DNA of 64,000 nt, from assembly GCA_965203865.1 (NCBI GenBank), contig OZ241916.1:2872738-2936737 (forward strand). The letters run 5' to 3'. Below the pieces are notes generated by a model. That model had not been told where the DNA came from. It was given only the letters and a program-made list of their open reading frames with translations, and did no database searches. The translations under genes were made by a program, and so were the position numbers. Positions 53,508 through 62,814 of the stretch are shown here, in pieces (position 1 is the first letter of the stretch; each line of letters starts with the position of its first letter). This DNA comes from Arenicellales bacterium. Its GTDB lineage: Bacteria > Pseudomonadota > Gammaproteobacteria > Arenicellales > JAJDZL01.

Positions 53508-54101
53508 TCATTCGTTTTTCAGGCGAGCCTGCTTTCCAAGGTAGCCGCCGTGGTGACGAAGTCCGTAGTCGTGTCTTGTGATTCCTTTTTGCGTCATTAA
53601 AACAAGTGCAAGCGCGTCGGCTATGGCATTCATTACTGCAATACTGGCCGTAGGAGTCAGCCCCAATGGGCATGGCTCCTGAATCACACCCATTTCCAGA
53701 ATCAGGTCGCAGTGCTGACGCAACTCGGAATCCGGGTGAGATGTAATACCGATTACTTTTTCCAATCCAATATGCTTGCCAAGTTCAAGCATTTCAATCA
53801 CTTCTCGAGTTTTGCCGCTCGTGGAAAACGCAACCATGCAATCCTTTTCAGAGATTACCCCGAGATCCCCGTGAGCCGCTTCGCCAGGGTGAATATATAC
53901 AGCAGGCGTGCCGGTGGAGCATAGTGTCACAGCAAATTTTTTTGCTGCAAGACCCGCCTTCCCCATACCGGTTGACAGAATTTTACCTTGGCAATTCTCC
54001 AGAATTTCAACTGCCTTCACAAAAGAGTCGTTGACTTCCACTGAATTTATGGCTTTGGCCTCAGAGTCAAGTATTTTCTTGATTTGGTTACTTGTCTTCA
54101 T
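53508..54101 (-). CDS. SIS-domain sugar-phosphate isomerase (KpsF/GutQ-like or hexulose-6-P isomerase-like, no CBS domains)
   Basis: 197-aa ORF. GKILSTGMGKAGLAAKKFAVTLCSTGTPAVYIHPGEAAHGDLG and AFSTSGKTRE are SIS hallmarks. Confidence 0.85.
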   Translation of the reverse strand: MKTSNQIKKILDSEAKAINSVEVNDSFVKAVEILENCQGKILSTGMGKAGLAAKKFAVTLCSTGTPAVYIHPGEAAHGDLGVISEKDCMVAFSTSGKTREVIEMLELGKHIGLEKVIGITSHPDSELRQHCDLILEMGVIQEPCPLGLTPTASIAVMNAIADALALVLMTQKGITRHDYGLRHHGGYLGKQARLKNE

Positions 54102-54365
54102 TCGATTTGAATCAGTTTACAGATTGTCATTTAACCTTGAGTACACTCGCTAATCAATTTAATTCAAATTCATCGGCAGTACTGAACTATGATTGCAGCA
54201 CACCGCTGCGAGTCAAAAGGCTATTGTAGTTTTTAGAATTGTAATTCAACAGGTACGTGGGGATGCCGATGAATAGAATATTTGTCATTTTTACTCAAGC
54301 ATCAAGTTTTGCAATAAGTTTCAAAGTGAATGTGCAGAACCCCTCGTATTTCTCATTCGGATGCT
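53942..54365. repeat. 424-bp direct repeat, copy 1 (SIS gene 5' end plus its upstream region)
   Basis: Hand alignment to 56238..56661 with a constant 2296-nt offset. Only scattered mismatches. Confidence 0.85.
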
Positions 54366-54415: not shown

Positions 54416-54598
54416 CATGCATCTAACCATAAGTAAGGAAAATCCGAATCGGCACATGCTCAACAGTGGTCTGCAGAGTTCATTCCAGCAACTGAGGTTT
54501 CCATTAGCAGCTATTAAAGGGGAAAACAAACTCGCCAGCGTGCCAATCTGGACCGTTTTGTTGTATTATTCGACAACCCTTTAATAGTTAGAGGCATG
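54416..54598. mobile_element. MITE-like element, copy A (183 bp)
   Basis: Terminal inverted repeats CATGCATCTAACCAT / ATAGTTAGAGGCATG (13 of 15 matched). Roughly 70% identical to copy B, with perfectly conserved internal blocks such as GGGGAAAACAAACTCGCCAGC. The flanking 8-mers match only partly (TTATCTTT vs TTATATAA). Confidence 0.6.
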
Positions 54599-54646
54599 TT
54601 ATATAATTTGAATGCAGCTAGATTTCCAACGGATGGAGGTGATTTG

Positions 54647-55750
54647 ATGCAACGTGTTGAATATCTAAAGATAAGCCTAGATGAAGCCCGCTTTGACAAG
54701 GGCAATATACCCTCGGACGTTCAAAAATTACTTAATTGTGTCAGAGATTTTTTTGGGGAAATTGCCAAGTGGAGATTTGAATTGGACAATCTGGACAAGG
54801 ATATTGCCTCAGAAAAAGAATTTTTAGAATTAATTAGAAATCTGGAATCTGCACAATCAAATCAAGAAAGTCTTGAAAAGAATGAAAATGAATTTTCCAC
54901 CTGTTTTGAGTTGGCTAAGAGAGACTTTATTGAAATAATAAACTCGGCAAATCGAAATAAAGTTGTAGAAAGTGTAGTTCCATTTGAAATTTTAAAATTG
55001 TTCGAGAAAGAAAGAAGTTTTCGTGTAGATAAAACAATAAAACTTGAATTTCATCAAAATTCTGAGCCAATTCTATTCACGAGAGAGGCATATCTGAGAA
55101 TTGTTGAGGTATTGTCAAATGATTTCAAGTTTGGAGAATTTTTAATTCGGTGTACAGTATCGAAAATTGACAAAGACAGTATGACCATTCATTTACTTTT
55201 TCCAAACGGAAAAAGACTGGTTGGAGCAATATCCCATCGACATCTGGAAGTTTTAATCAATGGTAAAAAGGGCAACGAGATCAAACTGAATGTAATGGTT
55301 GAAGGTTCAGGGATGTACAATGCTGACGGCGAATTAATTCGTGTTGAATCAATAAAAGAAATTACTCCGTTTGACCTATCTGATGTTCTAACCCGCCTGG
55401 ATGAGTTTCGTGATTTGAAAAAAGGCTGGCTAGACGGGGAAGAAGGCGTACCACCAAGTTTCGAAGGTTTGGATTGGCTGTCATCGTTGATTAAGAACAA
55501 ATTTCTGAGCGACGTGCCATTACCCTATACTTATCCCAAACCCGATGGTGGAATACAGCTAGAATGGTCGTTTCCTAATAGTATTGATGCAGACTTGGAA
55601 GTGGATTTAATTTCTCATACTGGTTTATGGACAAATTACGATATGTCAAACAATTGCAACCCCACTACACAAAAACTTGCACTGGACGAAAATAATGACT
55701 GGACATGGTTGATAGAAAAAATCAAGTCACTGAGTGAGGTTCGCGTTTGA
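54647..55750 (+). CDS. hypothetical protein: coiled-coil N-terminal half plus a C-terminal domain shared with ORF 57117..57563
   Basis: The ORF-track start at 54596 lies inside the MITE terminus. The ATG at 54647 (MQRVEYLK) has a GGAGG SD 8 nt upstream. 367 aa. Confidence 0.7.
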   Translation: MQRVEYLKISLDEARFDKGNIPSDVQKLLNCVRDFFGEIAKWRFELDNLDKDIASEKEFLELIRNLESAQSNQESLEKNENEFSTCFELAKRDFIEIINSANRNKVVESVVPFEILKLFEKERSFRVDKTIKLEFHQNSEPILFTREAYLRIVEVLSNDFKFGEFLIRCTVSKIDKDSMTIHLLFPNGKRLVGAISHRHLEVLINGKKGNEIKLNVMVEGSGMYNADGELIRVESIKEITPFDLSDVLTRLDEFRDLKKGWLDGEEGVPPSFEGLDWLSSLIKNKFLSDVPLPYTYPKPDGGIQLEWSFPNSIDADLEVDLISHTGLWTNYDMSNNCNPTTQKLALDENNDWTWLIEKIKSLSEVRV

Positions 55751-56121
55751 ATAACCAAACCTTGCTTCTCAGGCAAGTGCATCCAAATTTTATAGACAAG
55801 GGCATTATTACCAGACAAGTTTTTCAACCCACAAGAACAAATCCTCAACTATCCGTTTATGATGGCGACCAAATTAATGCTGAAGATTCCTGGATACACT
55901 TCACACAAAAATTACATCGCCTCTCTAGGGGCGTGGTCGCAGTATCTGTTGAAGAGTGCAGTTCGATAGAAGCACTTGAAGTTAAACCTGACCCGGGCGA
56001 ATTTCCAGAACATGCGTTAATTTCCTTTGTTGAAAAATTTTCCAGAAGCGAATTGAAGAGAATTTCGACATTTCTTCAGAGTAAAGCACATCAACGAGGT
56101 TGGCTATACAAGCCTCAGTAG
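55747..56121 (+). CDS. hypothetical 124-aa protein (candidate toxin/effector partner)
   Basis: A TTG start overlaps the upstream stop (GTTTGAAT). The sequence is MNNQTLLLRQVHPNFIDKGIITRQVFQPT...LSVYDG...EFPEHALISF, and no family could be assigned. Confidence 0.6.
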   Translation: MNNQTLLLRQVHPNFIDKGIITRQVFQPTRTNPQLSVYDGDQINAEDSWIHFTQKLHRLSRGVVAVSVEECSSIEALEVKPDPGEFPEHALISFVEKFSRSELKRISTFLQSKAHQRGWLYKPQ

Positions 56122-56237: not shown

Positions 56238-56397
56238 TTGCTGCGAGACCCGCCTTCCCCATACCGGTTGACAGAATTTTACCTCGGCAATTCTCCAGAA
56301 TTTCAACTGCCTTCACAAAAGAGTCGTTGACTTCCACTGAATTTATGGCTTTGGCCTCAGAGTCAAGTATTTTCTTGATTTGGTTACTTGTCTTCAT
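56238..56397 (-). pseudogene. truncated duplicate of the SIS gene 5' end (first ~53 codons)
   Basis: MKTSNQIKKILDSEAKAINSVEVNDSFVKAVEILENC.GKILSTGMGKAGLAA is identical to 53508..54101 except for one residue. Homology then breaks. Confidence 0.85.
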
Positions 56398-56661
56398 TCG
56401 ATTTGAATCAGTTTACAGATTGTCATTTAACCTTGAGTACACTCGCTAATCAATTTAATTCAGATTCTATCGGCAGTACTGAACTATGGTTGCAGCACAC
56501 CGCTGCGAGTCAAAAGGCTATTGTAGTTTTTAGAATTGTAATTCAACAGGTACGTGGGGATGCCGATGAATAGAATATTTGTCATTTTTACTCAAGCATC
56601 AAGTTTTGCAATAAGTTTCAAAGTGAATGTGCAAAACCCCCGCATTTCTCATTCGGATGCT
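56238..56661. repeat. 424-bp direct repeat, copy 2
   Basis: See copy 1. Confidence 0.85.
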
Positions 56662-56856
56662 CAATTCAGCGAGCTGTCGTTGATTTCAATCTATGCGGCG
56701 ATGGAGCTGGTTGAGAAAAAACTGGACCGGCGAATCAATCCGACCCTTTACAAGCCTGCTGACTTTCGAGAACGAATGTCGAGAAAGGCAGAATTTGTTG
56801 TCCGTGTCCTGAATCGCCCGCATATCATTCTTGTGGGCACTCTCAATGACTCGTAA
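56662..56856 (+). pseudogene. 3' fragment of a nucleotidyltransferase-type (MNT-like) antitoxin/regulator gene
   Basis: The tail RRINPTLYKPADFRERMSRKAEFVVRVLNRPHIILVG matches the conserved C-terminus I recall for this family (..NP.vY...EF...........F...vl..Pki.l.G). The N-terminal NTase motif is missing because homology breaks at the repeat boundary. Confidence 0.45.
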
Positions 56857-57076
56857 GGAACTCGACAATCTTGTACAGATTGGGCAATTAAAGCAGGCAA
56901 GTGTTACAAAGCGGAACTTTTCAACTTTGATTCATTCGAACTGGTCCACGTTTATAGTCCCAATGACTATAGATTATAATAATGATAGAAGTAAGTCATT
57001 ATTGGACCAGAAGCCTATATTTGACTTTTTGCAAATTGACAAAAAATTATTCTGGAAAGAGATTTGTTTACTATAA
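56846..57076 (+). pseudogene. probable truncated HEPN-like partner of the MNT relic
   Basis: MTRKELDNLVQIGQLKQASVTKRNFSTLIHS overlaps the upstream stop, as in MNT/HEPN pairs. The ORF then degenerates into AT-rich sequence and ends early. Confidence 0.3.
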
Positions 57077-57116
57077 ATCGGGGAAGTGCCTGTATTCATG
57101 CAGTACTGACCACAAA

Positions 57117-57563
57117 ATGCGAATCATCATGAGAAAAAACCAGGACAGTTTGCCTGCTACCGACAACCCGGTACTTGGACCAAGGACACTTGCTCCACCG
57201 CCAAAGCTATCGCCTACTCAACAACTGCTTATGAAATTGGAAGCTTATCAGAACATGCCAGAAGACGAGCGATGGCCACCTGCGAAGTGGCCTGAAGAGA
57301 AAGCATTTGAAGATGCCTATAACTTCATCCAGCACCTTGATCTCAATTCAGTTCCTATGCCGATTATCACCTTGGCTGATGATGGCGAGGTTAATTTTTT
57401 TTGGAAGAATGCCTCTGTCCATGTTGACCTTGGTTTCTATGGAACAGGTACTTACTCCTACTTTGCCTGCCATACAGACGGGCGCAAATTTATTGGCGAA
57501 GTTGAACCGGCTCGGAAAGGATTACCTTCCGAGGTGATTCAGCTATTCCGAGAGGTCAAATAA
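57117..57563 (+). CDS. hypothetical protein carrying the same C-terminal domain as 54647..55750
   Basis: The likely start is the internal MRIIMRKNQ of the 193-aa ORF. The shared pattern is W...P....F.......L.....P.P......DG.....W......D (SVPMPIITLADDGEVNFFW vs DVPLPYTYPKPDGGIQLEW). Confidence 0.6.
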   Translation: MRIIMRKNQDSLPATDNPVLGPRTLAPPPKLSPTQQLLMKLEAYQNMPEDERWPPAKWPEEKAFEDAYNFIQHLDLNSVPMPIITLADDGEVNFFWKNASVHVDLGFYGTGTYSYFACHTDGRKFIGEVEPARKGLPSEVIQLFREVK

Positions 57564-57599: not shown

Positions 57600-57784
57600 C
57601 ATGCCTCTAACTATAAGTAAGGAAAGCCAGAATCAGCACATGAACAACTGCGGTTTGCGGCATTCGTTCCGGCCGCTGAGGGTTTCAGTAGCGGATATTG
57701 AAGGGGAAAACAAACTCGCCAGCATACTCATTCAGACCGTTTCGTTGTATGATTCGACAACCCTTTATAATAGTTATAGGCATG
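57600..57784. mobile_element. MITE-like element, copy B (185 bp) with an 8-bp target-site duplication
   Basis: Terminal inverted repeats CATGCCTCTAACTAT / ATAGTTATAGGCATG (14 of 15 matched). It is flanked on both sides by TAACGAAA (57592..57599 and 57785..57792). Confidence 0.7.
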
Positions 57785-58116: not shown

Positions 58117-60309
58117 ATGCCGACTTCAAACACAGCATTGAAGGGCAATGCAGGGCAATTTGCTACTGAATTGCAACTTGCTTCAGTGAACCAAGAAGCC
58201 TTGCCAATCCATATTCACCCGAGAGTCTTCGCAGCACTGGGGGCAGACCTTGTTACAGATGATGTTGTCGCCGTTGTAGAGCTGGTAAAAAACTCATATG
58301 ATGCGTTTGCACATAATGTTTGGGTAAGATTTACCGAAGATTCGAATGGAAACTTGGAATTGGAAATTGAAGATGATGGCCACGGTATGTCCAGAGAGAG
58401 CATCGAAAACTCATGGTTTGTAGTTGCTACACCACTTAAGCAGCAAAACCCTTATGTAAAAAAAGGCAATAAAACTCGCCGGGTAGTAGGTGAAAAGGGA
58501 TTGGGTCGTCTATCTGCTGCAAGACTCGGAACAAAATTGTTGATGCAAACAAAGGCGGATCAAAACCCTTGCTGGGAGGTTGTGGTTGACTGGGATACAC
58601 TGTTCCGACACGATCGAATGGAAGACTGTAGTCTTGAAATAAGGAAATTGCCTGATGATTCCCGGGTTGCAAGAGCAGGCACATATATAAAAATATCTAG
58701 TCTGAGAAGCATTTGGAAAGACAAGCAAATTGCAAATCTTGAAAACGGATTAAGGCGAATTATAAATCCCTTGTTTAAATCTGATGATTTCAAGATTCAT
58801 TTTTTGAAGCCAGGCTCCACAGAATTAGAGAAAATAGAAATTACTTCACATGACTTTCTTGAAAACCCCAAATACAGAATATATGGGCACTCCGATAAAT
58901 ATGGTAATGTTAATTGGAAGTACGAGTACAGTTCAATTGATTGCAACAAGAGTCGTGAGTATGAATCTAAATTGTATTGGGAACAGATCTTCAATAGCAT
59001 TCAAGAAAGCGATAAAGACCACTTATCTTCAGAATCTGTTCAATGTGGACCATTCTCCTTTGAAGTGCGCGCATGGGATCTGCAAGCAGAAGATACTGAA
59101 GAAATCGCAGACAAATATGAAATCCGGAAAAACGAAATTCGAAAATCCATCAGTGCATTCAAAGGTATTTCTGTTTACCGAGACAATGTATTGATATTGC
59201 CCAAAACAGAAAATTCAAGAGATTGGCTTGGACTTGATGCTCGAAGAATTGCCAGAGTCGGCACACGCTTAAGTACATCTCAAATTGTTGGCTATGTATC
59301 TATCTCTAGTGAAGACAATCCTGGAATAAAAGATACAAGCGACAGAGAACGACTTGCAGATTGCGTTGAAGTAGAAAAGTTTCGAGAAATTTTACGTGCT
59401 ATTGTAGGGCTATTTGAAGTTGAAAGAGATGAAGATAGAATCAAGCGGGAAATTGAAAAACCCATGAAGGATTTATTTGCACAAATAGAACCTCAAGAAT
59501 TATTCACAAATATAAATAGCAAGTTAAAAGAAGGTGCTGACTCATCGGAAGTTATTCAATTGATGGATCAGATGAGGGATTCATTGGCTGAGACGCGTAA
59601 TACGATTCAATCTCGTTTTGTTTACTATAGTAGATTGGCAACAATTGGTACCATTGCGTTTTATTTGATTCACGAAATACGAAACAAAACATTCGTAATT
59701 GGTGGGCTAATAAGAGTATTGGAAGGAACTGATATTTATTTGAATAACACAGATATAAAAAAGGCATGTATAAGAGCGAGGGAGTCAATTCATTCATTGG
59801 AGAGGTTGGCGGATACTTTTGCTCCGTTAGCTAGTCGAAATTTTAGACGTCGTGCCAGAAGTTCGGTGCTAGAAGAGAGAATCAAAAGTTGTATTGAACT
59901 CCAGCAAATATCACTTGAATCAAAGCATATTGTATGCGTAGTTCCAGATTCAATTACAAAGGTGGCGGCAGATCCTGGGGAACTTGACACAATAATATTG
60001 AATTTAATAACAAACTCAGAATACTGGCTTTGTCAAATTCCAAAGGCACAAAGAAAATTGATTTTTGAGTGTGATATTCAAAACAGTGGAAAGTTTGTTC
60101 GTATTACTGTAAGCGATACAGGCCCAGGTATAGAAAAAGAAGATTTGGAGAAAGTGTTTCTACCTGGGGTCACGCGAAAACCAAATGGTCTTGGAATGGG
60201 CCTTACGGTTGCGGCAGAGCTGGCTTCGATTTACAACGGAAACATTCACACAATACATACCAACGGGAATGGTGCAGTTTTTGTGTTTGATCTGCCTCTT
60301 TTGAAATAA
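58117..60309 (+). CDS. cytoplasmic MORC-like GHKL ATPase module fused to a histidine-kinase transmitter (HisKA-like plus a second HATPase_c)
   Basis: 730-aa ORF. First GHKL: VVELVKNSYDAF, EIEDDGHGMS, GEKGLGRLSA. A mid-region (GISVYRDNVLILPK...DWLGLDARR...SDRERL) follows. H-box YLIHEIRNKT. Second GHKL: ILNLITNSEYW, VSDTGPGIE, GLGMGLTVA. No hydrophobic TM segment was seen by eye. Confidence 0.85.
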   Translation: MPTSNTALKGNAGQFATELQLASVNQEALPIHIHPRVFAALGADLVTDDVVAVVELVKNSYDAFAHNVWVRFTEDSNGNLELEIEDDGHGMSRESIENSWFVVATPLKQQNPYVKKGNKTRRVVGEKGLGRLSAARLGTKLLMQTKADQNPCWEVVVDWDTLFRHDRMEDCSLEIRKLPDDSRVARAGTYIKISSLRSIWKDKQIANLENGLRRIINPLFKSDDFKIHFLKPGSTELEKIEITSHDFLENPKYRIYGHSDKYGNVNWKYEYSSIDCNKSREYESKLYWEQIFNSIQESDKDHLSSESVQCGPFSFEVRAWDLQAEDTEEIADKYEIRKNEIRKSISAFKGISVYRDNVLILPKTENSRDWLGLDARRIARVGTRLSTSQIVGYVSISSEDNPGIKDTSDRERLADCVEVEKFREILRAIVGLFEVERDEDRIKREIEKPMKDLFAQIEPQELFTNINSKLKEGADSSEVIQLMDQMRDSLAETRNTIQSRFVYYSRLATIGTIAFYLIHEIRNKTFVIGGLIRVLEGTDIYLNNTDIKKACIRARESIHSLERLADTFAPLASRNFRRRARSSVLEERIKSCIELQQISLESKHIVCVVPDSITKVAADPGELDTIILNLITNSEYWLCQIPKAQRKLIFECDIQNSGKFVRITVSDTGPGIEKEDLEKVFLPGVTRKPNGLGMGLTVAAELASIYNGNIHTIHTNGNGAVFVFDLPLLK

Positions 60310-60337: not shown

Positions 60338-61492
60338 GTGAAAATACTTGTTATAGAAGATGAGGACCATGTAATTGATACAATTCAGGATCTTTTGTCG
60401 AAGGAAGAACCTGCATGGAATCTTGAAGGAATATCTTTCAAATGTGCAGAAAAAAAGCTTGTGTCGTTTCGACCAGATGTTGTAATACTTGATATATTTG
60501 ATGGTGAAATTGATCCGAGTAACGCAGCCGGCGGCAAGTTACACAATTTTGTTTGGAACGAACATTTCTGCCCAATTGTAGTATTTTCTGCGAGACCCTA
60601 TCAAACTGAAATCAAGGATGATAACCATCCATTTAGGCGATTTGTAGAAAAAAGTAGTGATAGTTATGATGAGCTTGTAAATATTCTACGAGAATTTCAA
60701 CCCCACATTAAGTCAATAAACGTTACATTCTCTTACATACAAAAGAATTTGTATGGTGTCTTACGAGACGTGGCACCTCAAATTTTTCAAGAAATTGATG
60801 ATGATAATGGTGCTGAACGTCATGAGGCAATTAAAAGAGCAAGCAGACGGAGATTGGCTGCGCTAATGGATGAAAGTCCAAATGGAGATGCTAAGCTTGT
60901 CGGCTGGGAACAATATATATTTCCTCCAATAAACGAGGATTGCTTGCTAGGAGATGTAATAATCAAATCTGGCGGGTCGAATTCAGAGCCGTCCGATTTT
61001 CGAATCATTTTGTCTCCTTCATGCGACCTTGTCAAACGGCCAAAACCGAAAATCAAAGAGATTCTGGTTGCAAAGTGCTGTTCAGTTGCAGATGGCTTAT
61101 ACAAGGCGAACAAAAAGGACATGAAAAAGAATGATAAAAATAAGGAAACTATTGAAGGAATTCTTAGACAAGGTTACATAAATTCTGTTATTCCTTTACC
61201 GAAATTAAAAGGCAAGATTCCTAATATGTTCGCAGATATGAAAGATTTGGAACTTGTGGCATGGGAAAATATCATCGACAAAGAAGAGTCAGGTTCAAGG
61301 GAAGAAATCGGAGACAAAGAAAAATCACAACCAAAATATTATAGAGTTGCCTCGGTTGATAGTCCATTTCGTGAAATGATTTCACAAGTATATCAGTTAG
61401 TTTCGACTAGGCCAGGATTGCCGGAAAGGGACTTTGAATCCTGGGTAAAAGAACTTTCGGAAGAGCCGTGGGGAAAAAATGAAGGCGATTGA
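60338..61492 (+). CDS. response-regulator receiver protein with an unassigned ~260-aa output domain
   Basis: 384-aa ORF with a GTG start. REC motifs: MKILVIEDEDH, phospho-acceptor context RPDVVILDI (Asp52), IVVFSA. The remainder (e.g. FRIILSPSCDLVKRPKPKIKEILVAKC) contains no HTH or enzyme motif I recognise. Confidence 0.8.
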   Translation: MKILVIEDEDHVIDTIQDLLSKEEPAWNLEGISFKCAEKKLVSFRPDVVILDIFDGEIDPSNAAGGKLHNFVWNEHFCPIVVFSARPYQTEIKDDNHPFRRFVEKSSDSYDELVNILREFQPHIKSINVTFSYIQKNLYGVLRDVAPQIFQEIDDDNGAERHEAIKRASRRRLAALMDESPNGDAKLVGWEQYIFPPINEDCLLGDVIIKSGGSNSEPSDFRIILSPSCDLVKRPKPKIKEILVAKCCSVADGLYKANKKDMKKNDKNKETIEGILRQGYINSVIPLPKLKGKIPNMFADMKDLELVAWENIIDKEESGSREEIGDKEKSQPKYYRVASVDSPFREMISQVYQLVSTRPGLPERDFESWVKELSEEPWGKNEGD

Positions 61493-62501
61493 CTTTTTTT
61501 GCGGTGCTGGAGGGTTGACGCGAGGATTGGTGCAATCAGGAATTGACGTGGTTGCAGGTCTTGATATAGATAGTAGTTGCCAAGCTACCTACGAATACAA
61601 CAATAAGGGAATACAATTCATTCGAGAGGATATCAAGAATGTAAACTCAGAATTATTGAAGAATCTTTACTCCGAAAAAGACGTGCTGCTATTTGCGGGA
61701 TGTGCTCCTTGCCAGCCTTTCAGTCATCACAGGAAGAGTAGTCCCAAATCGGATAGCGCGAGACTTCTTAAAGAGTTTGGTAGACTGGTAGTATCGGCAT
61801 TGCCAGATTACGTGTTGATGGAAAATGTACCAGGTATGGCCAAAGTTCTTGGATATAGCACGTATCGAAGATTTTTGAATGCATTGAGAAACTGCAACTA
61901 CAATTGCAAATCAGAAGTTCTAAACGCTAAATACTTCGGTGTTCCCCAAAATCGCAAACGATTGGTTTTGATTGCCGCCAAAAACAAAATTCCAACTCTT
62001 CCTGTGCCTGAATTTGGTGAAAGGGACCAACCATTTCGAACAGTGAGAGATGCTATATCTCATCTACCGAAGATAGTTGCCGGTGAGAACCATGGTTCGG
62101 TGAATAACCATGTAGCTGCAAGCCTTTCCAAATTGAATTTGGAAAGGCTACGATTCACACCATCTGACGGCGGTGACCGAAGGTCGTGGCCCGACCATTT
62201 GAAGCTCCATTGTCACAGCCATGCACATACGGGTTACACTGATGTATATGGTCGTCTGCGTTGGGATGATGTAGCACCAACATTGACCAGTCGGTGCTAC
62301 AGTTTGTCGAATGGGCGTTTTGGACATCCACAGCAAAATCGAGCCATATCTCTTAGAGAAGCAGCAGCCCTTCAGTCATTTCCGGATGACTATGTCTTCT
62401 TTGGGACAAACACAAAAATTGCAAGACAGATTGGTAATGCGGTACCAATCGAATTGGCGAGGCAGCTGGGACGACACCTGCTTACGATTGAATCAAGCTG
62501 A
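61479..62501 (+). CDS. DNA (cytosine-5)-methyltransferase
   Basis: 340-aa ORF overlapping the receiver gene by 14 nt. Motif I DFFCGAGGLTRG, motif IV GCAPCQPFS, motif VI ENVPG, motif VIII QNRKRLVL, motif X GNAVP. Confidence 0.93.
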   Translation: MKAIDFFCGAGGLTRGLVQSGIDVVAGLDIDSSCQATYEYNNKGIQFIREDIKNVNSELLKNLYSEKDVLLFAGCAPCQPFSHHRKSSPKSDSARLLKEFGRLVVSALPDYVLMENVPGMAKVLGYSTYRRFLNALRNCNYNCKSEVLNAKYFGVPQNRKRLVLIAAKNKIPTLPVPEFGERDQPFRTVRDAISHLPKIVAGENHGSVNNHVAASLSKLNLERLRFTPSDGGDRRSWPDHLKLHCHSHAHTGYTDVYGRLRWDDVAPTLTSRCYSLSNGRFGHPQQNRAISLREAAALQSFPDDYVFFGTNTKIARQIGNAVPIELARQLGRHLLTIESS

Positions 62502-62814
62502 CAGACCAGTTCGAAGAGCAATTCTTCGTTGTCTGTTGCTATAGTACGCATTGATCGACTAATGGCAGAAAGGATGCCGGTAGAAAAAGCTTTTGAAATA
62601 GCTAATACAACTCTAGCGGGAACCGCTCCAGGCAAGTTTTTCTATCTTTTGAAGCGAAAATAAATTATATTTTCTAACCATCTGTGCAACAAAATAATTC
62701 AGGCAGCAGGCATTTTTTAAAAAAAGGTTGAAATTTAAATCAGATTCGGTAACAATTCACATTTATTCCCATAATAATAGAAGGAACATCTTTGTTTATT
62801 CACTTAATCTAGCA

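Follow-up and report, generated by a model that had tools for sequence, protein, structure and literature searches.

The locus

The present analysis concerns a 64,000-nt stretch of contig OZ241916.1 from an Arenicellales bacterium (positions 2,872,738 to 2,936,737 of the forward strand; hereafter, the window), and in particular the gene at 60338–61492 on its plus strand, which encodes a protein of 384 aa composed of an N-terminal receiver (REC) domain and a long output region. This open reading frame (ORF) had been singled out in an earlier note made from the sequence alone, and it proved to be real, with all three peptides quoted there present in its product. Its GTG start was consistent with the N-termini of the homologous proteins (MKIL.../MLKL...). 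The gene, referred to here as that of the response regulator (RR), is the second of three on the plus strand. It lies 28 nt downstream of an ORF for a soluble sensor histidine kinase (HK) of 730 aa (58117–60309, +), recognised by Pfam, NCBIfam and PDB profile matches and by motifs kept in 70 orthologues, and its 3′ end overlaps by 14 nt the start, at 61479, of a gene for a C5 cytosine DNA methyltransferase (Dcm) of 340 aa (61479–62501, +; Pfam PF00145, PADLOC MTase_II), whose product begins with MKAIDFFCGAGG. A terminator-like hairpin directly 3′ of the methylase gene (62512–62528, +) is the probable end of the operon, by a consensus match only and in a region where the number of such matches was not above that expected from shuffling. 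The three-gene stretch had a GC content of 0.35–0.44, against 0.48–0.52 in its flanks. The reading favoured here, with a probability of about 0.5, is that the RR is the phospho-switched effector of a restriction-modification (R-M)-like system that has its own dedicated cytoplasmic kinase and C5 methylase.

A divergent receiver domain

The receiver domain comprises residues 1–106 (60338–60655, +), as delimited by the secondary structure of the model, Foldseek and conservation. It is a divergent receiver, because the Pfam family PF00072 (Response_reg) scored 14.1 bits on this protein (E 0.055, residues 3–53), below its gathering cut-off of 30.2, while 47 of 56 relatives were matched at E ≤ 1, the best at 3.3e-7. 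An AlphaFold2 model of the whole protein, computed with the family alignment (predicted local distance difference test, pLDDT, 85.3; predicted template modelling score, pTM, 0.75), presented a (beta-alpha)5 fold over these residues with pLDDT of 84 or more, and the top 50 Foldseek matches of this model in the PDB were all receiver domains or receiver-containing proteins, with template modelling (TM) scores of 0.6–0.74 to isolated receiver domains. The searches by phmmer against the PDB gave marginal receiver matches and nothing else, and PADLOC returned a single marginal match (PDC-M60B, E 0.0059, residues 2–61).

The residues needed for phosphorylation were examined in a superfamily comparison of 489 sequences drawn from the three subfamilies described below. 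The phospho-acceptor D52 (codon 60491–60493) was conserved in 100% of them and D8 in 97–99%; position 7 was E or D, position 84 was S or T and position 105 was K or R (E7, S84 and K105 in the window protein, where E7 and D8 make up the acidic pair). The clean REC domain announced in the earlier note was thus borne out in its fold and catalytic residues but not in its family score.

The output domain is modelled as a toxin-type barrel

For the residues past the receiver (about 278 aa), no sequence family was found in Pfam, NCBIfam or PADLOC, nor by phmmer and profile searches of the PDB, and no helix-turn-helix (HTH), GGDEF, EAL, HD or PD-(D/E)xK family was detected in the protein by Pfam, NCBIfam and PADLOC. 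The earlier note had likewise listed these families as absent and had held that the C-terminal two thirds match nothing that could be named, which is right for sequence families but not for the fold. In the AlphaFold model, the receiver is followed by a helical connector (residues 109–177; 60662–60868, +), also marked by conservation, which is made of a 44-residue helix (109–152, pLDDT 86–96) and a second one (159–177, pLDDT 79–88) bearing the RRRLAALMDE motif with R167. The latter is the charged stretch already suspected of being helical; it was modelled as a confident helix, and R167 is conserved across the superfamily. Next comes a beta-rich domain (189–355; 60902–61402, +), delimited by Foldseek against PDB and BFVD, the order of its secondary structure and conservation. 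Strand 1 (206–210), a loop, strand 2 (221–224), a short helix (228–231) and strand 3 (241–248) are followed by a helical insertion (250–278), strand 4 (284–287), a hairpin (297–308), a variable loop, strand 7 (334–340) and a terminal helix (342–355), with which the domain finishes. This order of elements is what we take to be the MazF topology.

A second model, of residues 155–384 alone (pLDDT 78, core above 85), was compared with the PDB by Foldseek, and 49 of the top 50 matches were MazF/MoxT/YdcE-type toxins, from E. coli, B. subtilis, S. aureus and M. tuberculosis, the remaining one being the type III toxin CptIN (ToxN-type); the E values were 3e-3 to 4e-2, with probability of about 1.0 and TM scores of 0.60–0.72 normalised to the toxin. 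In BFVD, an independent library of viral structures, the top matches were annotated as 'PemK-like protein' or 'endoribonuclease'. The MazF/PemK/Kid endoribonuclease toxins were therefore the only consistent barrel matches across the two libraries, and no DNA-binding fold appeared among the structural matches in either. The output domain is accordingly predicted to adopt a PemK/MazF/Kid (CcdB-like) barrel fold. The structure prediction and fold search proposed in the earlier note thus returned a barrel of this type and not a DNA-binding output domain, and a toxin fold in this place, if the model holds, does not refute the effector reading but speaks for it.

A widespread family with an invariant Cys-Asp pair

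A homologue search of 5.8 billion proteins returned at least 430 homologues, nearly all of 355–385 aa, which aligned over 97–100% of the query at about 40% identity; so many full-length relatives at this identity place the family far beyond chance. The profile of the C-terminal domain alone retrieved 872 clusters at 50% identity (E ≤ 1e-3), and the best 150 of them shared one architecture, in which the domain lies at about 155–360 of a protein of about 365 aa. In the alignment of 56 sequences, the C-terminal region was conserved at least as well as the receiver, its invariant residues including D178, E191, Y193, P196, P197, G205, L225, P227, S228, C229, D230, L243, C247 and P288. The core that had looked conserved in a single sequence was strongly so, and the possibility raised at the outset, that the region might lack conservation among homologues, did not hold.

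Two further subfamilies were gathered by way of distant relatives on a Bacillus plasmid (L085), in Fusobacterium (L086) and on Enterobacter (L087) and Campylobacter (L088) plasmids. At E ≤ 0.001, three word-seeded searches gave subfamily sizes of 430, 449 and 1292 proteins. The subfamily of the window protein is a divergent one that shares about 20% identity with the enterobacterial and Bacillus types and occurs for the most part in uncultured Nitrospirota, Chloroflexota, Planctomycetota and similar phyla, and the genera of the third subfamily include Klebsiella, Serratia and Aeromonas, together with the Chlorobiaceae. Across the 489 sequences, the C-terminal set consisted of R167, E191-x-Y193, P196, G205, P227-x-C229-D230, P288, F344 and R358-x-G360-x-P362. 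C229 and D230, the Cys and Asp of the SPSCDL peptide whose conservation the earlier note had asked about, were kept in 100/100/100% of the three subfamilies (P-S-C-D motif, P227–D230; 61016–61027, +), and E191, Y193, R167, R358, G360 and P362 in at least 88–100%. In the barrel's conserved set, G205 adjoins D206, forming a GD on strand 1. The superfamily-invariant residues lie ahead of strand 1, where strand 2 ends and beyond the last helix. Judged from the alignments, an invariant Cys-Asp accompanied by Glu, Tyr and Arg looks catalytic, and the conserved set suggests that a MazF-like scaffold bears a functional site peculiar to this family.

The K/E-rich tail of the earlier note was misplaced, since it corresponds to a loop modelled with low confidence (WENIIDKEESGSREEIGDKEKSQPK, residues 309–333; 61262–61336, +) plus a variable C-terminus. 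The loop is a lineage-specific insertion confined to the closest relatives and missing from most homologues. The C-terminal segment (61403–61492, +) holds the conserved R358-P-G360-L-P362, then an acidic tail, which is variable, and finally the stop codon.

The partner kinase and the phosphorelay

The kinase carries two ATPase modules in Pfam, HATPase_c_3 at residues 51–163 and HATPase_c at 619–728. Its N-terminus is a GHKL ATPase of the MORC/MutL type (about 33–217), and residues 33–217 matched the BbrUII/HgiDII restriction enzymes (NF050001) at E 5.6e-22 with 78 bits, the cut-off of that family being 550. The C-terminal part (490–728) resembles AtoS/ZraS-type kinases, and its dimerisation/phosphotransfer and catalytic domains matched ZraS/FixL-type kinases in the PDB. 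The H-box reads LIH519EIRN (H519 codon 59671–59673). H519 and E520 were invariant in the 70 kinase orthologues, in which the Bergerat motifs ELVKNSYDA, DDGHGM and GEKGLGRLS and the N, G1 and G2 boxes were also conserved. Between the two modules (about 350–415), there is a near-invariant region, ISVYRDNVLILP...DWLGLDARR and KDTSDRERL in the window protein and YRDxxxxLP...DWLGLD and KDTSDRERL across the orthologues, that was matched by no family model; it may be a transducer or the DNA-contacting part of the sensor.

The relay from HK to RR looks functional on sequence grounds, because D52, D8, S/T84, K/R105, H519/E520, the ATP-binding motifs and the N and G boxes are all kept. The pairwise divergence of HK and that of RR were tightly correlated (Spearman 0.73), which shows co-evolution of the two. 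No PADLOC model matched the window kinase, and no known nuclease domain was found in either protein with Pfam, NCBIfam and PADLOC.

The methylase and its linkage to the pair

The methylase matched PF00145 at 2.3e-60 and had its catalytic motifs complete, with FxGxG, PC78Q, ENV, QxRxR and GNAVP present. Among solved structures, its closest relative was eukaryotic DNMT1, in the catalytic domain (E 7e-30), the match including a segment beside the target-recognition region. A bacterial operon that combines a MORC-like ATPase with a DNMT1-like methylase recalls the eukaryotic partnership of MORC proteins and DNA methylation (Iyer et al. 2008, PMC2292703).

Gene linkage was assessed by scanning one genome per species, which yielded 98 relatives; 80 loci were retrieved and their genes mapped by tblastn. 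These loci belonged mostly to uncultured Nitrospirota, Chloroflexota, Planctomycetota, Acidobacteriota, Desulfobacterota, Bacteroidota/Rhodothermales and Proteobacteria, and the closest relative, with 74% identity, was an Arenicellales metagenome-assembled genome. The kinase gene lay directly upstream of the RR gene in essentially all 80 loci, a C5 methylase was present in 78 and Vsr in 53; the window locus has Dcm and lacks Vsr. The most frequent orders were HK-RR-Dcm (22 loci) and Vsr-HK-RR-Dcm (21), followed by HK-RR-Dcm-Vsr (6), Dcm-Vsr-HK-RR (5) and Dcm-HK-RR-Vsr (5). Beyond HK, RR, Dcm and Vsr, no conserved gene was found in the 80 loci.

Pairs without a C5 methylase in the retrieved flanks, with the PxCD motif intact, were observed in L003 and L010 (Thermodesulfobacteriota), whose flanks cover ±7–8 kb, and in L064, whose flank ends about 2 kb upstream of RR. 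In these cases, either the methylase is unlinked or the pair works without one. The linked methylases fell into four clusters (<45% identity). They form one family, because their target-recognition regions can be aligned and are conserved to the same degree as the catalytic core, with identities to the window enzyme of 0.39–0.43 for clusters 1, 2 and 4 and of 0.61 for cluster 3, and they perhaps share related specificity. The same observation weakened the suggestion of a free exchange of methylases among HK-RR pairs.

Genomic neighbourhoods

The window cassette is placed in a low-GC island (about 54.0–62.5 kb), beside a PADLOC candidate system composed of PDC-M32A (54596–55750, E 6e-63) and PDC-M32B (55747–56121, E 2e-41), whose proteins matched no Pfam family. 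Two direct repeats were observed in this island. The first (53942–54343 and 56238–56640; 402 nt, 99% identity) copies the 5′ end and upstream region of a SIS-domain gene (53508–54101, minus strand), and the second (54416–54583 and 57600–57767; 168 nt, 80% identity) has one copy just upstream of each cassette, PDC-M32A/B and HK-RR-Dcm. The two cassettes are separated by two ORFs of 100 and 193 aa without a family match (56554–57563), the 100-aa one starting within the 99% repeat and having its N-terminus duplicated at 54257. From the arrangement of the repeats, it looks as if cassettes were inserted serially at a single hotspot.

Five chromosomal neighbourhoods were inspected, and in three of them (L001, L092 and L093) HK-RR-Dcm was located between hsdM and hsdS/hsdR of a Type I R-M locus, and the Type I loci that house the cassette also carried genes for Fic, ImmA/DUF4411, DUF433, Schlafen-AlbA_2 (/HATPase_c_4) and OLD-type ATPase proteins. 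SocA/Panacea and prophage lysis genes were also observed as neighbours, and the cassette of the closest relative lay among metabolic genes. Conjugative plasmids of C. jejuni and C. coli, of about 50 kb, carried homologous HK/RR genes with a convergent dcm (NZ_CP092024.1 of C. jejuni, L088, and 40 further plasmid records), with hicAB, vapD and a gene for an AAA ATPase as neighbours; the hosts of these plasmids are culturable and clinically relevant. The Enterobacter plasmid copy was found beside an AbiJ-like gene. When the Enterobacter module was compared with E. coli genomes by blastn, no match was obtained, and a search by name found no BbrUII/HgiDII-type enzymes on plasmids. Carriage by viruses was rare, with two relatives in 2.9 million viral contigs. 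The view expressed in the earlier note that the operon might be a conflict system is in keeping with the HK-RR-Dcm linkage in 78 of 80 genomes, often in defence islands or Type I R-M loci.

Relation to known systems

The association of HK, receiver and C5 methylase is already known, having been reported in a computational study by Bellieny-Rabelo, Pretorius & Moleleki (Genome Biol Evol 2021, PMC8011034). The authors introduced the names HEF_HK (PF19191) for the H-box region and Response_reg_2 (PF19192) for the receiver. They found a linkage of 91.6% over 644 regions with enrichment of C5 methylases and Vsr, described the proteins as soluble and proposed their descent from paraMORC ATPases. The RR-like proteins had no other known domain, and the function suggested was that of signalling cascades controlling R-M systems. 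Their pairs share with those of the window a kinase composed of HATPase_c_3, H-box and HATPase_c, an adjacent receiver protein of about 360 aa and the linkage to C5 methylase and Vsr; their analysis covered the receiver and H-box regions and left the C-terminal 250 aa undescribed. Most likely, that family is the third-subfamily branch of the same superfamily, because the genera overlap. PF19191 and PF19192 had no match in the window proteins or in the Bacillus, Fusobacterium, Enterobacter and Campylobacter relatives and were likewise missing from the precomputed Pfam annotations of the homologues, and the two models may be absent from the Pfam copies used. The window protein is conserved and probably an effector, and its system has already been described in outline; the present analysis adds the PemK/MazF-like fold predicted for the output domain, the invariant set centred on Cys-Asp, the three-subfamily structure and the quantified linkage in a largely uncultured clade.

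Detocs (Rousset et al. 2023, 10.1101/2023.01.24.525353) provides a working anti-phage system built on a kinase and a receiver-effector protein, whose isolated effector is toxic. The logic of the window pair may be the same, but Detocs has a TPR kinase sensor, an extra buffer receiver (DtcB) and an effector that is mostly a PNP ATP nucleosidase, and it involves no methylase; the dtcA/dtcB/dtcC layout was not found, the window operon having no stand-alone receiver gene. The GHKL (paraMORC) restriction systems, treated by Iyer, Abhiman & Aravind (2008, PMC2292703), resemble the window kinase in their N-terminal GHKL ATPase and in the association with C5 methylase and Vsr. In those systems, however, the module occurs together with a nuclease or helicase, either as a fusion or as a partner, whereas here it is joined to a histidine-kinase core and the putative effector lies on a separate protein. 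Compared with Type II R-M systems, the methylase is present, but neither HK nor RR has a known nuclease domain and the likeness to BbrUII/HgiDII is partial. With PemK, MazF and Kid, the protein would share the barrel fold and the GD turn on strand 1, as modelled. It differs from them in lacking detectable sequence or profile homology, in two insertions in the barrel and an N-terminal helical extension, in being fused to a receiver instead of paired with an antitoxin, and in its invariant ExY, PxCD and RxGxP, the MazF catalytic positions not being kept across the superfamily. MADS was rejected as the same system, being a different one of eight genes, and the REC domains of CoCoNuT are unrelated.

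A proposed phospho-switched effector and its alternatives

According to the effector reading, the 730-aa kinase would sense its input through the N-terminal MORC/MutL-like GHKL ATPase, a kind of module also present in the BbrUII/HgiDII enzymes and paraMORC R-M systems, the input being probably a state of the DNA marked as self by Dcm methylation. The kinase would autophosphorylate on H519 and pass the phosphate to D52, and the signal would travel from the receiver through the long helical connector, probably by means of changed dimerisation, to the PemK/MazF-fold barrel, which would act on nucleic acid or another essential target. Its pocket would be a family-specific one formed from E191, Y193, C229, D230, R167 and R358, and not the canonical MazF site. 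The input of the sensor, the direction (on or off) in which phosphorylation would switch the effector, its substrate and a defensive or toxic outcome are what we infer. The most economical view is that HK and RR together replace the 'R' component, the kinase sensing and the RR barrel executing. This model is supported because the GHKL type of restriction enzymes occupies the sensor position, the linkage to the C5 methylase is near-obligate and there is no other conserved partner. It was also reasonable to call the protein the prime effector candidate, as the earlier note did, because no other conserved gene could supply an effector. A fuller version, in which a MORC-like clamp on the kinase reads methylation and a His-to-Asp relay controls a MazF/PemK scaffold with a new Cys-Asp-centred active site, constituting a new form of R-M-like immunity, must be regarded as doubtful.

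Several results weigh against the effector reading. The comparison by hhalign of the C-terminal profile (56 and then 372 sequences) with a small, manually compiled MazF/Kid/ChpBK alignment gave a probability of <1%, the profile search of the PDB with this region found no MazF or other toxin, and no recognisable nuclease motif was present in the protein. R222 and C247–S249, located where the MazF site might be sought, were alignment gaps in the other two subfamilies of the 489-sequence comparison. The methylase was missing near HK-RR in 2 of 80 loci, its divergence followed that of HK and RR weakly (rho 0.26–0.33), and the reading of DNA methylation by the kinase is conjectural. In the literature, no experimental study of the HK/RR/Dcm family was found, only the computational paper.

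These points bear in different ways on three other explanations. It is unlikely, in our view, that the operon is an ordinary regulatory two-component system whose C-terminal domain is a non-catalytic module binding DNA, RNA or protein and tuning the methylase or Vsr, with no killing or restriction. The canonical kinase-receiver layout with intact phosphorelay residues, the shared operon with dcm and the lack of a recognisable nuclease family would suit such a system, which is essentially the published speculation of cascades controlling R-M systems (PMC8011034). Nevertheless, the structural matches include no DNA-binding fold, the invariant Cys-Asp with Glu, Tyr and Arg in three subfamilies looks catalytic, the sensor is the GHKL module of restriction enzymes, and the cassette is mobile among defence islands, Type I R-M loci and plasmids, which would be unexpected for a housekeeping regulator. 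The same residues and fold matches are central to the proposal that the protein is a true MazF-type metal-independent endoribonuclease mounted on a receiver, in which phosphorylation would release cleavage of mRNA, rRNA or tRNA at the canonical site and lead to abortive infection. MazF/PemK toxins being the only consistent fold matches speaks for it. In addition, R222 (82% in the window subfamily) opens strand 2 and C247-C248-S249 closes strand 3, and we take the positions of R222 and C247 to correspond to R29 and T52 of E. coli MazF; the best, non-significant hhalign match also paired the strand-1 GD motif with the GD of MazF. Because only the window subfamily has R222 and C247 at these positions, it cannot be taken for granted that the chemistry is of the MazF type, and their equivalence to R29/T52 as a general family feature was dropped in view of the gaps in the other two subfamilies. 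The hhalign probability and the location of the superfamily-invariant residues elsewhere also speak against this proposal; PemK_toxin of Pfam matched none of the 56 members at E ≤ 1, and no small conserved upstream antitoxin gene was found among the window ORFs or in the 80 loci, where the neighbours are HK and Dcm. Because the MazF catalytic positions are not conserved, RNA cleavage of this type is given low weight and seems quite improbable.

The third explanation, a guard or addiction module, has an analogue in PrrC, an anticodon nuclease that the EcoprrI R-M system keeps latent. Here, the effector would be held inactive for as long as methylation or the methylase is intact and would fire upon its loss or inhibition, whether by phage anti-restriction or by loss of the cassette. 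The near-obligate linkage to dcm in the absence of a separate restriction nuclease and the repeated nesting of the cassette in Type I R-M loci, as with prrC, are in line with such a module, and so is the H-E-x-x-N H-box of the kinase, typical of bifunctional kinase/phosphatases able to hold their regulator in one state. On the other side stand the absence of any sign that the methylase protein is linked to the pair, physically or functionally, the position of the closest relative's cassette among metabolic genes and the two HK-RR loci without dcm, and the guard explanation appears as improbable as the MazF-type enzyme.

Significance

If the effector reading is true, this would be a very widespread module distributed over many phyla, including Campylobacter, Bacillus and Enterobacter plasmids, in which self-marking DNA methylation, a phosphorelay and a toxin-fold effector are joined. 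It would provide the second example, after Detocs, of two-component signalling acting directly as immunity, as well as a new catalytic variant of the MazF/PemK fold. Should the doubtful methylation-reading relay also prove true, the MORC-like ATPase and the DNMT1-like methylase would represent a prokaryotic counterpart of the eukaryotic silencing partnership. The effector reading, if true, would also provide a tractable bacterial model for the communication between MORC-type ATPases and cytosine methylation.

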